4,330 bases of DNA from a virus (taxonomy: Duplodnaviria; Heunggongvirae; Uroviricota; Caudoviricetes), in the IMG/VR virus record IMGVR_UViG_3300029104_000077, positions 1 to 4,330 of that record. One strand, 5' to 3'. Made by a program: the position numbers and the translations under genes. Of this stretch, positions 1-4,330 are shown piece by piece (the first letter of the stretch is position 1; each line of letters opens with the position of its first letter). Under the pieces are notes generated by a model that was given only the letters and a program-made list of their open reading frames with translations, was not told the origin of the DNA and searched no databases.

Positions 1-630
1 GCAAAAAATGACCCGTTAACAGTTGACCCGTCAAATATTGACCCCTCAACGGTTGGCCCGTCAAATTTTGATGGATCAACGGTTGATAAAAAACTGCCGG
101 TCAGGGGGGCGATGATTGACCCCGATCCGTCAGTATTAAAACCTGATCCGTCAGATAAAAGATCTTCTTGTCCGGACGTTTCACTGCCGGACGAAAAACA
201 ATCATCACCAGTTGAGCGATTTCTGGAGAAACACCCGGATGCGCATACCTGGAATGTACCGAAGCGACAGTGGGGTACCCGTGAAGATGTCGCCTGTGCG
301 CAGTGGATTTGGGGACGGGTTGTGGCGTTGTATGAACAGGCCGCCAGTGATGATGGTGAGGTGTCACGCCCCCGAGAACCTAACTGGACGACCTGGGCGA
401 ATGATGTGCGCATGATGCGTATGCTGGATGGACGTAGTCACCGGCAGATTTGTGAAATGTTTGGGCGTGTCCAGCGGGATTCGTTCTGGGTAAAAAACAT
501 CATGAGTCCGGCAAAACTCCGGGAAAAATGGGATGAACTGGTTATCCGCCTGGGGCGTTCGCCCGCGCAGCGTTGCGTGAATCACATTTCTGAACCGGAC
601 ACTGAAATACCGCCTGGATTCAGGGGGTGA
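1..630 (+). CDS. Phage replication initiator (lambda O-like), C-terminal portion; 5' end lies upstream of the window
   Basis: Frame 1 is open from position 1 with no stop until TGA 628-630, so the track ORF 112..630 is only the internal-Met part of a longer gene. Positions 1-170 encode a D/P/S-rich low-complexity linker (..DPLTVDPSNIDPSTVGPSNFDGSTVD..DPDPSVLKPDPSD..) coincident with the DNA-level iterons, followed by a globular-looking C-terminal region. It sits 6 bp upstream of a DnaC-like loader gene. An origin embedded in the initiator gene is the established lambdoid arrangement; assignment by organisation, not by recognised sequence identity. Confidence 0.55.
   Translation, partial: AKNDPLTVDPSNIDPSTVGPSNFDGSTVDKKLPVRGAMIDPDPSVLKPDPSDKRSSCPDVSLPDEKQSSPVERFLEKHPDAHTWNVPKRQWGTREDVACAQWIWGRVVALYEQAASDDGEVSRPREPNWTTWANDVRMMRMLDGRSHRQICEMFGRVQRDSFWVKNIMSPAKLREKWDELVIRLGRSPAQRCVNHISEPDTEIPPGFRG
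9..98. repeat. Tandem 15-bp direct repeats (iteron-like), about 5 good copies plus a degenerate sixth; core TGACCCGTCAA with internal dyad TGAC-CC-GTCA
   Basis: Seen directly: tgacccgttaa (9-19), tgacccgtcaa (24-34), tgacccctcaa (39-49), tggcccgtcaa (54-64), tgatggatcaa (69-79), degenerate tgataaaaaac (84-94); constant 15-bp register. Each core contains the inverted half-sites TGAC/GTCA. Confidence 0.75.
9..164. other. Candidate phage origin of replication (iterons + A-rich tract + GATC cluster) inside the initiator coding sequence
   Basis: Iteron array 9-98, A-rich stretch gataaaaaactg (85-96), a second 10-bp direct repeat GATCCGTCAG at 124-133 and 145-154, and four GATC sites at 74, 124, 145 and 161. 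Location within the initiator gene just upstream of the helicase-loader gene matches the lambda ori-in-O arrangement (established knowledge). Confidence 0.6.
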
Positions 631-636
631 CGTGGC

Positions 637-1383
637 ATGAAAAACATTGCGGCAGCCGGGGTTCTTGAACGTATTCGCAGACTTGCACCACAGGGGGCGG
701 TTCCACCGTACCGGACGGTGGAGGAGTGGCGGGAATGGCAGCTTGCTGAAGGACGAAAACGCAGCGAGGAGATTAACCGCCAGAATCGCCAGTTGCGGGT
801 GGAAAAAATCCTGAATCGTTCGGGCATCCAGCCTCTGCACAGCAAATGCTCGTTTGCGAATTATCAGGTGCAGAACGACGGGCAAAAACACGCGCTGAGC
901 CAGGCAAAATCCATCGCTGACGAACTGATGACCGGGTGCACGAATTTTGTGTTCAGCGGTAAAACCGGCACCGGGAAAAATCACCTTGCAGCGGCGATGG
1001 GCAACCGGCTGATGGCGAAGGGGAGCAGCGTGATTATCGTCACCGTGTCTGACGTCATGAGTGTGTTGCATGACAGCTACGACAACGGCCAGTCCGGGGA
1101 AAAATTTTTACAGGAGCTTTGCGGGGTTGATTTGCTGGTCCTGGATGAAATAGGCGTTCAGCGTGAGACGAAAAACGAGCAGGTGGTATTGCACCAGATA
1201 ATTGATCGCCGGACAGCATCACTGTGCAGTGTCGGGATGTTAACAAACCTGAATCATGCCGCAATGAGTACGCTTCTCGGTGAGAGGATTATGGACCGCA
1301 TGACCATGAACGGTGGTCGATGGGTGACGTTTAACTGGGATAGCTGGCGTCCAAATGTCAGCAATCAGAGGGTTGTGAAGTAA
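637..1383 (+). CDS. DnaC-family replicative helicase loader (prophage-encoded DnaC paralog, AAA+ ATPase)
   Basis: 248-aa ORF with ATG at 637 preceded by GGGGG (623-627). The translation contains segments I recognise as near-identical to E. coli DnaC: NRSGIQPLH..CSF.NY, Walker A FSGKTGTGKNHLAAA, Walker B DLLVLDEIGVQ, GMLTNLN, LGERIMDRM. Size and position immediately after the initiator fit a lambdoid replication module that uses a DnaC-type loader instead of lambda P. Confidence 0.9.
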   Translation: MKNIAAAGVLERIRRLAPQGAVPPYRTVEEWREWQLAEGRKRSEEINRQNRQLRVEKILNRSGIQPLHSKCSFANYQVQNDGQKHALSQAKSIADELMTGCTNFVFSGKTGTGKNHLAAAMGNRLMAKGSSVIIVTVSDVMSVLHDSYDNGQSGEKFLQELCGVDLLVLDEIGVQRETKNEQVVLHQIIDRRTASLCSVGMLTNLNHAAMSTLLGERIMDRMTMNGGRWVTFNWDSWRPNVSNQRVVK

Positions 1384-1404
1384 TTTTTGTCGGAGGACGT
1401 TTTA

Positions 1405-2121
1405 ATGGAAACCGTATTTGACGCACTGAAAGCACTGAAAAAAGCCTCTTCACAGGTAGTGGCATCGCGCCTTGGAATCAGCCGTGAAGAGGCGGTCAAC
1501 GAACTGTGGAAACTGAAGCGCCGCGGTGAAGCGGATAACAAGGGTTCGATGTGGTGGCTGATTCAGGCTGGTGAAAGTGAACCAGTGTCACCGGTACCGA
1601 AAGTGACAGCGCAAATGCTGACAGAGGCGATTGAACAACATGGCCCACAAACGGCGGATGAACTGGCACTGATGTTCGGAATTACCTCCCGCCGGGCGAA
1701 TTCATCGCTGGCAATGGCAATCAGCAAAGGGCGTCTGATTCGCGTGAATCAGGGCGGTAAATTTCGTTACTGCATGCCGGGCGATAATTTACCAGCAGAG
1801 CCGGAAGCTGCATCCGCAGCGGAAACGGATGGTAAAGCCTTTCCTCAGCCAGCAGGAGTTGCGTTACCAGTCCAGGAAACAACGACACAGGAAGAAATGA
1901 AAACAGAAATCGAGGAAGACATTGTGAAGTTACAGCCATCGGTCACTGAAGCGAAAGCAGATGACCTGATTCTACCATCGCTGCATGTGGCTAACCGCGA
2001 GCTGCGCCGGGCGAAAAGTGATGTTCAGAAGTGGGAGCGAGTCTGTGCTGCGCTACGGGAACTGAACAAACACAGGGATATTCTCCGGGATATTACCGCC
2101 ACCAGAGAGCAGCAGCGGTGA
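1405..2121 (+). CDS. Hypothetical phage protein with two winged-helix-like segments and an acidic, coiled-coil-like C-terminus
   Basis: ATG at 1405 preceded by GGAGG (1392-1396) at 8-nt spacing, preferred over the TTG at 1387 used by the ORF track. 238 aa. Two internally similar segments ([32 protein letters not shown] and [37 protein letters not shown]) resemble HTH recognition helix plus wing; the C-terminal third is E/Q/K-rich. No family confidently recognised. Confidence 0.6.
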
Positions 2122-2435
2122 GTGGCTGGAAGAAGTGGCGCTGGGCTGAAATCCTGATACTCCGGCAGTGTGCGGGAACGATGAAAGTCGAAAGCATCGG
2201 TTATCTGATTGGCCGTAGTGAGTCAGCCGTCAGGACGAAAGCGCGGGAACTGGGTCTCAGCATGATGTTACGGGGTGATTATCACCAGTCAGCCAAATGT
2301 TCACAGCGTGATATTGAGCTGGCGCGGCAACTGCATCAGCGTGGTGTACCCCGACGGGAAATTGCCGAAAAGTTTGGGATGAAGTTGGGCGCAGTGAATA
2401 ACTACGTTTATTTCGACAGGAGGGTTCAGGAGTGA
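2118..2435 (+). CDS. Small putative DNA-binding protein with two HTH-like motifs (N-terminal GcrA-like / sigma-70 region-4-like motif)
   Basis: Frame open from 2031, but the GTG at 2118 overlaps the upstream stop (gGTGA, 2118-2121) in a coupled arrangement; ATG 2181 is an alternative start. Residues [46 protein letters not shown] resemble the W..E..L..L..G.S...IA..LG....AV..K..RLGL pattern of GcrA-type N-terminal DNA-binding domains; a second HTH-like segment is [34 protein letters not shown]. The motif begins right at 2118, which supports that start over 2181. Confidence 0.5.
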
Positions 2436-2734
2436 GGGTGAGGGTTTATATCGCCGGTCCGATGACGGGATATGAAAATTTTAACCGCGAGGCATTTCAC
2501 AAAGCGGAAGAGGTGCTGAAACGGGAAGGGCATACCGTTTTAAACCCGGCAGTACTTCCGGACGGGCTGACTCAGCCACATTACATGGATATTTGCATGG
2601 CAATGATTCGTTGTGTGGATGCGATTTACATGCTGAAAGGCTGGCAGCAGTCGGCAGGTGCAAGGGCTGAGCTGGCACTGGCGGAGAAACTGGGCCATGC
2701 GGTGATTTTTCAGGAGGTGGGCAGTGAATATTGA
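2432..2734 (+). CDS. DUF4406-like small protein (nucleoside 2-deoxyribosyltransferase-like fold), function unknown
   Basis: 100-aa ORF; GTG start at 2432 overlaps the upstream TGA (2433-2435), with AGGAGG at 2418-2423. N-terminal VYIAGPMTG..NFNREAF, then AIYMLKGWQQSAGARAELALAEKLG with a Glu in the expected position. This matches my memory of the ~93-122 aa phage/bacterial DUF4406 family with one invariant Glu, related to nucleoside 2-deoxyribosyltransferases. Not verified by search. Confidence 0.7.
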   Translation: MRVRVYIAGPMTGYENFNREAFHKAEEVLKREGHTVLNPAVLPDGLTQPHYMDICMAMIRCVDAIYMLKGWQQSAGARAELALAEKLGHAVIFQEVGSEY

Positions 2735-3026
2735 CCCGGCGATAACGATTGATATGGCCCTGAACACCGGCCTGGCGCTTCTTGGTTATTTCTACATCAT
2801 GTTCTGCAGCGGACGATGGCTGTCACTGTTGTTCATGAAAAAATGGAATAAACGCCGTAAGCAGGAGCAACGCCAGAAGGCAATGGATGCATTTTTCGAA
2901 GCCTTCGGGATTGACGGCATGGAACCAGGGGATCCAGCTCGCGCAATTAGCAGAGGGGGCGTAGTAATCCTTGTATACCGGAGTGAAGAGAAAAATGAGC
3001 GAGATCAACTATCAGGCACTGCGTGA
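2724..3026 (+). CDS. Small predicted single-pass membrane protein (hypothetical)
   Basis: GTG start at 2724 with AGGAGG (2712-2717) at 6-nt spacing, 8 nt before the upstream stop (2732-2734). 100 aa with one hydrophobic segment (ALNTGLALLGYFYIMFCSGRWLSLLF) followed by a strongly basic stretch (KKWNKRRKQEQRQK), i.e. a positive-inside single-pass topology. The last ~10 codons overlap the next gene's start, so the exact extent is uncertain. Confidence 0.45.
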   Translation: MNIDPAITIDMALNTGLALLGYFYIMFCSGRWLSLLFMKKWNKRRKQEQRQKAMDAFFEAFGIDGMEPGDPARAISRGGVVILVYRSEEKNERDQLSGTA

Positions 3027-3624
3027 GGCGGCAGTAGCAATTGAAACAGTAGCAACGCCTCAAAAATTGCTGGCATTTCGTATGAAAGTCACACCTCAGG
3101 TTGTGCTGGCGCTACTGGATGAACGAGATGCATTAAACGAACGCATAGCCGAACTGGAGGCTAATTTAGCGGAGCTGGCCGAAGACCAACAGAAAGCGAT
3201 TGAGTCAATTAAGCAGGCTGATGCGGCTGTTAAGTTGGCACACGAGAAGTTTTCGGAGCTGGCAGCGGAGAATGCGGCGCTTAAACAGTCGGAGAAGGAA
3301 TTTAATAACTTCTGTCGTCAGGAGTACTACGGTTGGGAGGACAACTTCACGGAAACCCCAGCCACCGATGCTTTTCTGGCTGAAATTCGTGCGGAAGCAC
3401 GCAACGAGGGGATTAACTATACCGCCAGCCGTCTTGCTGCTGCGTTCAATCACGGATTTATCAATAAGTCTTTGCGTGAAGTTTTCGACGTTACGCGCAT
3501 GATTCTGTCAGCGAAAGAAGAGTTGGCTAATGAACCGCATCCGATTGATGGCCTGTCTGGTGAATATGCGGAAAAATCCCTAGAAGAATGGGCGGAACAG
3601 ATTCGCAAAGGAGGCAACCAGTGA
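2995..3624 (+). CDS. Ea22-like (ead/Ea22 family) phage protein, paralog 1
   Basis: ATG at 2995, preferred over TTG 2971. 209 aa. N-terminus MSEINYQALREAA.. and the segment VTPQVVLALLDERDALNERIAELEANLAEL followed by a long coiled-coil-like region match my memory of the lambda Ea22 N-terminal module (MSEINSQALREAAE...LLDERE...). Not verified by search. Confidence 0.6.
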   Translation: MSEINYQALREAAVAIETVATPQKLLAFRMKVTPQVVLALLDERDALNERIAELEANLAELAEDQQKAIESIKQADAAVKLAHEKFSELAAENAALKQSEKEFNNFCRQEYYGWEDNFTETPATDAFLAEIRAEARNEGINYTASRLAAAFNHGFINKSLREVFDVTRMILSAKEELANEPHPIDGLSGEYAEKSLEEWAEQIRKGGNQ

Positions 3625-4330
3625 GCAAGATTGACTATCAGGTACTGCGTGAAAAGGCAGAAAAAGCAACGTGTGGTGAGTGGTCTCTCGAATATGGAGA
3701 GAGCCGATTTGATGGTGATGATGCACTAATTCATCGCGAGGCTGCTGGATATATTCCCATTTGCAGAATTGAAGGAGCGCATCCTGAAAGCGGTTTCGAT
3801 GAAGATTTCCAAATGGAACAGCAGGCCAATGCTGAATTCATAGCAGAGGCCAATCCGGCTACTGTGCTGGTACTGCTGGATGAACTGGAAGCCGCAGAGA
3901 AGCGCAACGCAAAATTACAAAGCGAGAATGCATACATCCGCAACCGGTACAAAGAACTGGACCTATTAATCGGGAAAAACATTCTTGTCATGCAGGCTGC
4001 GATTATCGAATGGCAGGCAACTGGCGACGCTAAAAGCGGACTGGCATGGATTTATAACACACTGTTTGGCCCAGGCGAGTTGCCGGACGAATCTGAGAAA
4101 GATGCTCAGGCCTACTTTAATCGCAAATATGCACCGATTGACGAAAAGCTTATGGCGCTTCACAAGTGGTTTTGGGAACAAAGTGAAGCCGAATTCGCAT
4201 CAAAGGAGAGTGATATGAGCGCTATTACCAAAGAGCGACTGCTGACAATCAGGCAGTGGCGCGAAACATACGTACCTGGTAGCAACGTTGTACTGCCAGC
4301 AGAAGAAGCGGAAGAACTGGCACGGATTGC
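3621..4330 (+). CDS. Ea22-like phage protein, paralog 2 (3' end beyond window)
   Basis: GTG at 3621 overlaps the upstream stop (GTGA, 3621-3624), with AGGAGG at 3609-3614 at 6-nt spacing. I translated the frame by hand and found no stop through 4330; it is absent from the ORF track only because it has no in-window stop. N-terminus MSKIDYQVLREKAEKATCGEW.. and ..ANPATVLVLLDELEAAEKRNAKLQSENAYI.. share the module seen in paralog 1; the rest diverges. Confidence 0.6.
   Translation, partial: MSKIDYQVLREKAEKATCGEWSLEYGESRFDGDDALIHREAAGYIPICRIEGAHPESGFDEDFQMEQQANAEFIAEANPATVLVLLDELEAAEKRNAKLQSENAYIRNRYKELDLLIGKNILVMQAAIIEWQATGDAKSGLAWIYNTLFGPGELPDESEKDAQAYFNRKYAPIDEKLMALHKWFWEQSEAEFASKESDMSAITKERLLTIRQWRETYVPGSNVVLPAEEAEELARI

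Follow-up and report, generated by a model that had tools for sequence, protein, structure and literature searches.

A DUF4752 family gene with a predicted single-pass membrane product in the early operon of a Rac/Qin-like lambdoid prophage

We analyzed a 4,330-nt stretch of viral DNA (hereafter the window) and conclude from its sequence and from that of its relatives that the open reading frame (ORF) at positions 2724–3026 does encode a protein and belongs to an already catalogued family, DUF4752/PHROG 667. Across related phages and prophages the gene has differing neighbors, and by this sequence evidence it acts as a mobile accessory cassette tied to no fixed partner. It is probable, in our view and with some reservation, that this promoterless cassette of the early operon encodes a predicted N-out/C-in membrane protein that would act on a host membrane-associated process. 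An initial annotation of the DNA had proposed a small membrane-protein gene here; the gene is real, but its membership of a catalogued family had not been recognized.

Identity and Coding Status of the Gene

A sequence check placed a 100-codon ORF plus stop on the plus strand, from the GTG at 2724–2726 to the TGA at 3024–3026 (Table 1). The list of ORFs in the window also contains a spurious 100-aa ORF at 3200–3502, so that a length of 100 codons is not in itself significant; what length alone could not show, namely that the ORF at 2724–3026 is real, follows from homology and selection. Residues 7–90 of the product align with positions 1–84 of the 84-position Pfam profile DUF4752 (PF15944) at 133.3 bits (E 3.2e-39; gathering threshold 27 bits), and residues 1–93 align with positions 1–93 of 94 in PHROG 667 (E 8.6e-42). 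A prophage of E. coli OkiPb01717 is 99% identical to the window across positions 1–3002, and RefSeq labels the ORF there as "DUF4752 family protein," as it does in O111:H11 strain 8D.

Among 16 distinct alleles, dN/dS was 0.25 in the annotated frame and 1.2–1.8 in four other frames, while the antisense frame that shares the third codon (wobble) positions gave 0.32; variable sites numbered 23, 13, and 42 at the first, second, and third codon positions, respectively. The frame was intact in all but two of 85 related loci (viral contigs and annotated records). Counting the window together with these 85 fetched loci, the 90-codon core was intact in 84 of 86 sequences, and the reading frame, for which conservation in related prophages had been the crucial question, is kept from E. 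coli to Xenorhabdus.

These data bear on the possibility that the ORF is a chance or non-expressed frame, or that a much shorter product is made from an internal start codon. We regard this as extremely improbable and as already largely refuted. The same-sized spurious ORF elsewhere in the window, the lack of conservation in the final 10 residues, and the existence of frameshifted copies in some prophages would all be in keeping with a chance frame. Such a frame would nevertheless be hard to reconcile with a DUF4752 match that spans the whole profile, with a low dN/dS confined to the annotated frame and the wobble-sharing antisense frame, with a start position that is kept, together with a dedicated ribosome-binding site, whichever of three unrelated contexts lies upstream, or with homologues that retain the same architecture at 20–30% identity. 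A short product is opposed by conservation near the start: T8 does not vary in close relatives, and in the intact set (alignment A2) conservation exceeds 90% at I9, T11, and A12, indicating that the N-terminus before Met11 is under constraint.

TABLE 1. Coordinates of the DUF4752 gene, its parts, and its neighbors in the window.
Feature	Position	Strand	Evidence
Upstream neighbor, DUF4406 gene, nucleoside 2-deoxyribosyltransferase-like	2432..2734	+	PF14359 E 2.2e-37; PHROG 355
Shine-Dalgarno AGGAGG, 6 bases 5′ of GTG	2712..2717	+	Sequence
DUF4752 family gene, GTG start	2724..3026	+	Pfam, PHROG, RefSeq annotation of 99%-identical prophage, dN/dS
11-nt overlap with end of DUF4406 gene (stop TGA 2732–2734)	2724..2734	+	Sequence
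Hydrophobic helix, putative transmembrane anchor, residues 11–37	2754..2834	+	Hydropathy, invariant columns, AlphaFold, dN/dS 0.17
Lys/Arg-rich juxtamembrane stretch, residues 38–52 (MKKWNKRRKQEQRQK)	2835..2879	+	Charge
C-terminal mini-domain, residues 53–90, predicted end of long helix, then beta-hairpin	2880..2993	+	AlphaFold, motif, dN/dS 0.11
Conserved gene junction CTTGTATACCGGAGTGAAGAGAAAAATGA, encodes LVYRSEEKN	2970..2998	+	Silent variants of junction in about 80 loci
Non-conserved tail, residues 91–100 (NERDQLSGTA)	2994..3023	+	Read in +2 frame of Ea22-like gene
32-nt overlap with first Ea22-like gene (ATG 2995–2997, +1 frame)	2995..3026	+	Sequence
Downstream neighbor, first Ea22-like gene, 209 aa	2995..3624	+	PF13935 E 2.8e-10; PHROG 614 and 368

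Operon Organization

The window is part of a Rac/Qin-like lambdoid prophage and corresponds to its rightward early operon, in the order O-like gene with iteron-like repeats, DnaC-like ATPase, DUF1627, HTH protein, DUF4406, DUF4752, and two Ea22-like genes, and successive genes from DUF1627 onward overlap by 4–32 nt. A promoter scan found no sigma-70-like promoter across the window. The three weak terminator-like hairpins found in the window are fewer than shuffled sequences give and none is convincing, and no Rfam family matched within the window at E values up to 1.

Several observations on the neighboring genes can be recorded here. The DUF4406 protein matches PHROG 355 (nucleoside 2-deoxyribosyltransferase) with an E value of 1.7e-47 and Pfam Nuc_deoxyrib_tr weakly, and its gene may be a nucleotide-metabolism accessory gene. 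The two Ea22-like genes stand in tandem (2995–3624 and 3621–4330), joined by a GTGA overlap, and both begin with an MS(E/K)I(N/D)YQ.LRE motif. The DUF1627 protein (1405–2121) matches its family with an E value of 8.6e-83 and also has a weak PADLOC match to SWIM_XIII (E 6e-4) and weak winged-helix matches. In phage lambda, ori is situated inside gene O; at 2–90 of the window, within the 3′ part of the O-like gene, about six copies of a TTGACCCnTCAA-like unit recur with a 15-nt period, and these look like origin iterons of the lambda kind.

Variable Ends and a Conserved 3′ Junction

At its 5′ end the gene is preceded by a start context, ...caggaggtgggca GTG, that is common to 16 related loci. 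The initial annotation had described the position of the ORF, a good Shine-Dalgarno sequence, and a GTG start coupled to the DUF4406 gene, and each of these descriptions was borne out, the position exactly; judged from the sequence, the 11-nt overlap gives translational coupling to that gene. Relatives have one of three different genes upstream, and the DUF4752 gene overlaps it by 4 or 11 nt. The start codon varies with the upstream gene (GTG after a DUF4406 or TraR-like gene, ATG after a MarR-like gene), as do the first 5–7 codons.

The 3′ end is closed in about 80 loci by a junction with the consensus CTTGTATAyCGGAGyGAAGAGAAAAATGA, encoding LVYRSEEKN. This junction carries the ribosome-binding region and the ATG of whichever gene comes next, and it stands before at least four different downstream sequences. 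In this arrangement the ATG of the next gene is always inside the conserved junction GAGAAAAATGA, and the DUF4752 frame continues past the junction to the first stop within that next gene, making the overlap a by-product. Counted from the ATG, the overlap in relatives is 14, 32, or 47 nt: 14 nt when the next gene starts ATGAGCAAGATTGAC or ATGAGCGAGATTAAC, 32 nt in the window, where it starts ATGAGCGAGATCAACTATCAGGCACTGCGTGAG, and 47 nt with a gene starting MTITKQRVE. Because the sequences diverge after the shared ATG, the length of the overlap depends on which gene comes next.

The overlap of about 32 nt with the Ea22-like gene in another frame, as originally reported, is thus correct to the nucleotide. 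The Ea22-like gene of the window starts MSEINYQ, with ATC AAC at the codons where relatives have ATT GAC or ATT AAC, creating TGA or TAA in the DUF4752 frame; lacking either stop, the window allele has a tail six codons longer. The tails that follow ...EEKN are, depending on the locus, NEQD, NERD, NERDQLSGTA, or NDDHKTTSRKNHISP. In the window allele, residues 91–100 have a pLDDT of 44–49 and are not covered by the Pfam match. They are read-through, the functional product being about 90 residues long. The weak C-terminal region that had cast doubt on the ORF is therefore real in the sense that conservation and the Pfam match end at about residue 90 and the tail is predicted with low confidence, but the ORF itself is genuine.

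Past window position 3002, within the junction region, the identity to the OkiPb01717 prophage is lost, and the conserved N-terminus of the Ea22-like genes thus appears to be a recombination joint. Variation at both the 5′ and the 3′ ends marks each end of the DUF4752 gene as such a joint. A programmed +1 frameshift at GAGAAAAATGA, fusing the protein to Ea22, was considered and rejected, since it finds support in no feature and unrelated genes follow the same junction.

Predicted Architecture and Membrane Topology

The first 10 residues are acidic (net charge −2) and variable. The hydrophobic segment that follows, residues 11–37, is the most conserved of the protein, with N14, G21, Y24, R31, and W32 invariant in close relatives, and it is predicted as helix with a pLDDT of 87–91 by AlphaFold. 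Residues 38–55 carry a net charge of +6. Codons 38–55 (2835–2888) gave a dN/dS of 3.7, with hardly any synonymous change and several replacements, from very small counts; this value may be noise or may reflect constraint at the nucleotide level. The C-terminal mini-domain contains the family motif A..F.DAF.L....G....V.T.GG..I...R, and its predicted beta-hairpin has strands at 72–75 and 81–84. AlphaFold was run twice, on 23 and on 46 aligned sequences, and both times gave one helix from residue 5 to about residue 60, followed by the hairpin. Mean pLDDT was 72.7 and 75.7, and the pTM of 0.33–0.37, together with a pLDDT of 61–74 in the C-terminal domain, makes the tertiary arrangement uncertain. 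Inspection of the sequence found no signal peptide, and a reading of the protein as a lipoprotein or signal-peptide-bearing protein was rejected, both a lipobox and a basic n-region being absent.

We infer that the product is a single-pass inner-membrane protein with its N-terminus in the periplasm and its C-terminal domain in the cytoplasm. The positive-inside bias is present in the window allele, which has a charge of −2 on the N-terminal flank and +6 in residues 38–55, and family means are −0.6 on the N-terminal side versus +3.0 over the 15 residues that follow the hydrophobic segment. Of the transmembrane helix and Lys/Arg-rich stretch predicted earlier, the hydrophobic residues 11–37 and the +6 stretch hold good, whereas the transmembrane call is weaker for this particular allele. 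Its mean Kyte-Doolittle hydropathy over 19–21 residues is 1.41–1.50, which is marginal and below the usual 1.6, its helix contains Arg31, and the Hessa-scale sum for the helix is positive.

A soluble protein, in which the hydrophobic helix would serve as an oligomerization interface or as an in-plane membrane-binding helix, is an alternative that we consider unlikely. It would account for the low hydropathy of the window allele and its positive simple Hessa sum, and for the conserved Lys or Arg inside the hydrophobic stretch of most of the distant members (YI..K...W). It sits less easily with the family as a whole, in which the hydropathy has a median of 1.72 and is 1.6 or more in 40 of 67 members, or with the asymmetry of flank charge, which is consistent with a transmembrane helix. 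Two further points against it are that the hydrophobic stretch extends over 26–28 residues within one continuous predicted helix, and that a weak resemblance to HemY_N, a membrane-anchor region, recurs in six members.

Distribution and Genomic Context of the Family

A word-indexed search returned 57 clusters, nearly all of them of E. coli or Shigella origin. An exhaustive profile search returned 63 representative clusters, defined at 50% identity, including members of 82–108 aa that are just 20–30% identical to the window protein. Three long repeat proteins (P0075, P0108, and P0110) were set aside, their spurious multi-copy matches being due to cystatin-like or TPR repeats. Homologues occur in genomes of Citrobacter, Pseudocitrobacter, Dryocola, Erwinia, Yersinia, Rouxiella, and Xenorhabdus and in 135 phage records, so that the family extends through temperate phages of the Enterobacterales; the phage records include Stx1 and Stx2 phages, Salmonella P22-like phages (L and BTP1), mEp043, HK106, the P1-like phage D6, and phages of Klebsiella, Hafnia, and Erwinia. 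BTP1_045 and mEp043 gp31 were confirmed as family members, and the DUF4752 profile matched 29 of 29 diverse members. The shared architecture, consisting of an N-terminal hydrophobic helix, a basic stretch, and the C-terminal motif A..F.DAF.L / G....V.T.GG..I...R (alignments A3 and A5), is kept at 20–30% identity in Citrobacter, Yersinia, Erwinia, Xenorhabdus, Klebsiella, and Salmonella P22-like phages. Alignment A3 was too divergent to seed a scan of genome contigs, and a narrower alignment was used for that purpose. In phage Phi24B the interval from the TraR-like gene to ea22 contains no DUF4752 gene, and vb_24B_1c of the same phage was rejected as a distant member, its translated product bearing no resemblance to the family.

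The neighbors of the gene differ from phage to phage, which is the basis for regarding it as a cassette without a fixed partner. Stx phages of the VT2-Sakai type carry it in their leftward exo-xis region, where it is flanked by a TraR/Orf73-like zinc-finger gene on one side and a truncated Ea22-like gene on the other, and in other Stx1 phages it comes after a small MarR-like gene. In BTP1 and several other genera it is found after the replication genes and before NinB-type genes, and in Xenorhabdus it is 3′ of the lysis cassette. An Ea22-like gene is often, though not obligatorily, the downstream neighbor. At locus L089 (4252–4551) of Dryocola clanedunensis, the gene that follows the DUF4752 homologue, via an ATGA overlap, is not Ea22-like but encodes a small protein of 99 aa that is also predicted to be a membrane protein.

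Frameshifted DUF4752 copies are present in some resident prophages, indicating that the gene is dispensable there. Variants such as P0044, P0051, and P0057 go out of frame right after the A-run at 2838–2843 (K39–K40), the first two regaining the original frame further on, and P0042 and P0054 lose the frame near codon 57 (codons 57–58, about 2892–2897). These recurrent variants reflect either real decay in prophages or assembly errors. Chimeras were also seen among the relatives P0088, P0090, and P0103, one joining an Ea22-like N-terminus to the DUF4752 C-terminal mini-domain and another joining the DUF4752 membrane helix to DUF4406. They suggest recombination between adjacent cassettes, and suggest that the C-terminal domain can occur in proteins that lack the anchor.

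Possible Function

Database and literature searches gave little to build on. The DUF4752 protein had no family match in PADLOC-DB at E values up to 1 and no match in NCBIfam. A profile sequence search of the PDB returned designed TPR proteins alone, by way of the basic helix, a compositional effect, and Foldseek comparisons of the first AlphaFold model with the PDB and of the second with BFVD yielded nothing with E < 0.08, only short helical matches. DUF4752 was mentioned in no paper found, nor were PF15944, phrog_667, STMMW_03601, BTP1_045, or F850_gp31, and matches to "H0158" were in unrelated papers; papers on modeling and omics of the exo-xis region do not discuss the gene. The role of toxin, exclusion factor, or regulator first suggested for the product is accordingly without direct support, there being no PADLOC match, no promoter of its own, and no structural or literature match.

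The proposal that we prefer is one of a small membrane protein that modulates a host process. The gene moves as a cassette between early-left (exo-xis/ea) and early-right (nin-like) operons and, in the window, would be translated within the rightward early operon, 3′ of the replication genes and coupled to its neighbors. The product would insert in the manner of the Pf3 coat protein, with no need for a signal peptide. Its periplasmic tail would be tiny and variable, with selection falling on the membrane helix and the cytoplasmic domain, a distribution that most likely places its action at the inner face of the membrane. There it would bind a host membrane-associated protein from the cytoplasmic side during lytic growth.

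Other functions would suit a protein of this general build. A superinfection-exclusion or anti-phage defense factor serving the lysogen, comparable to SieB, HK97 gp15, or T4 Imm, might be expected as a small phage membrane protein, as this one is predicted to be, sited in an accessory region and widespread among prophages. We nevertheless think this role quite unlikely, given that no PADLOC family matched at E values up to 1, that SieB was matched by just one of 29 members (E 0.25), and that the periplasmic part amounts to about 10 variable residues. The organization of the locus also argues against it: the gene is embedded and coupled inside an early lytic operon and has no promoter-like site, and so is not organized as a moron, the term for an accessory gene that brings its own promoter. 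Copies also decay in resident prophages.

Involvement in lysis timing, as a holin-like or antiholin-like protein, or a membrane-damaging toxin of the Hok type, is likewise improbable in our judgment. General features of holins are present in the small size, the one hydrophobic helix, and the highly charged C-terminus, and the Xenorhabdus gene is a few genes 3′ of an endolysin and spanin cassette. Yet the Xenorhabdus loci already have a holin-like gene 5′ of the endolysin, while in E. coli, Salmonella, Citrobacter, Yersinia, and Erwinia the gene is part of early operons far from the lysis genes, and in the window it adjoins replication and Ea22-like genes rather than a lysis cassette; Holin_9 was matched by one of 29 members (E 0.15). 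As for a Hok-type toxin, a separate hokD gene is present elsewhere in the same prophage type, no RNA family matched in the window, and a 100-aa, operon-coupled gene contrasts with a toxin of about 50 aa that has an antisense RNA locus of its own. The exclusion or defense, holin-like or toxin, and soluble readings are less well supported than the proposal of a membrane modulator.

Comparison With Known Systems

The closest comparison is with the family itself (VT2-Sakai orf78, mEp043 gp31, and BTP1_045 in Pfam DUF4752/PHROG 667), with which the window protein shares full-length membership, the 82–108 aa size class, and the same architecture. Family members and the window gene alike belong to early accessory operons of temperate enterobacterial phages. 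The window allele differs from other DUF4752 genes in its GTG start in the DUF4406 context and its six-codon longer read-through tail, and in nothing essential.

The Pf3 major coat protein has a short acidic N-terminal tail, one hydrophobic span, a basic C-terminal side, and no signal peptide. DUF4752 proteins, as predicted, would have these features in common with it, and the likeness, which is one of topology alone, would imply N-out, C-in insertion. Unlike the Pf3 coat, to which they have no sequence similarity, they have an extra, predicted cytoplasmic region of about 55 residues and are not virion proteins. Lambda CIII is an inhibitor of FtsH and has an amphipathic, peripheral helix that does not span the membrane. 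With CIII and with bacterial small membrane proteins (PMC12648545), DUF4752 would share small size, lack of enzymatic activity, and early expression, although there is no homology to either; by analogy with these modulators, it would be likely to act by binding a larger membrane-associated host protein. Holins, SieB, and HK97 gp15 are small phage membrane proteins with charged cytoplasmic tails, as the DUF4752 product is predicted to be, but DUF4752 differs from them in its place within an early operon, where it has no promoter of its own, and no profile match to them was significant.

Implications

The finding mainly confirms annotation: the gene is a real and ordinary member of a catalogued, uncharacterized family. 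Its junction provides a small, clear example of the overlapping start/stop joints that allow accessory genes to be swapped between phage operons, and also illustrates that one altered codon in a neighboring gene can determine how long an overlap is.

Prophages of E. coli commonly carry members of the family; Shiga-toxin phages are among them, and there the gene is found inside the exo-xis region. The exo-xis region influences prophage induction, and orf73 (TraR-like) of VT2-Sakai and ea22 have been reported to favor lysogeny. From its position between the TraR-like orf73 and ea22 in Stx phages, DUF4752 could influence the lysis-lysogeny or induction outcome. We see a slim chance that the family forms a new class of phage single-pass inner-membrane modulators that would set this outcome, and hence Shiga toxin release, by binding a membrane machine of the host, FtsH/HflKC or the divisome for example; if so, the conserved membrane helix and the cytoplasmic hairpin would be the parts that contact the host machine. 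[quoted passage not shown]
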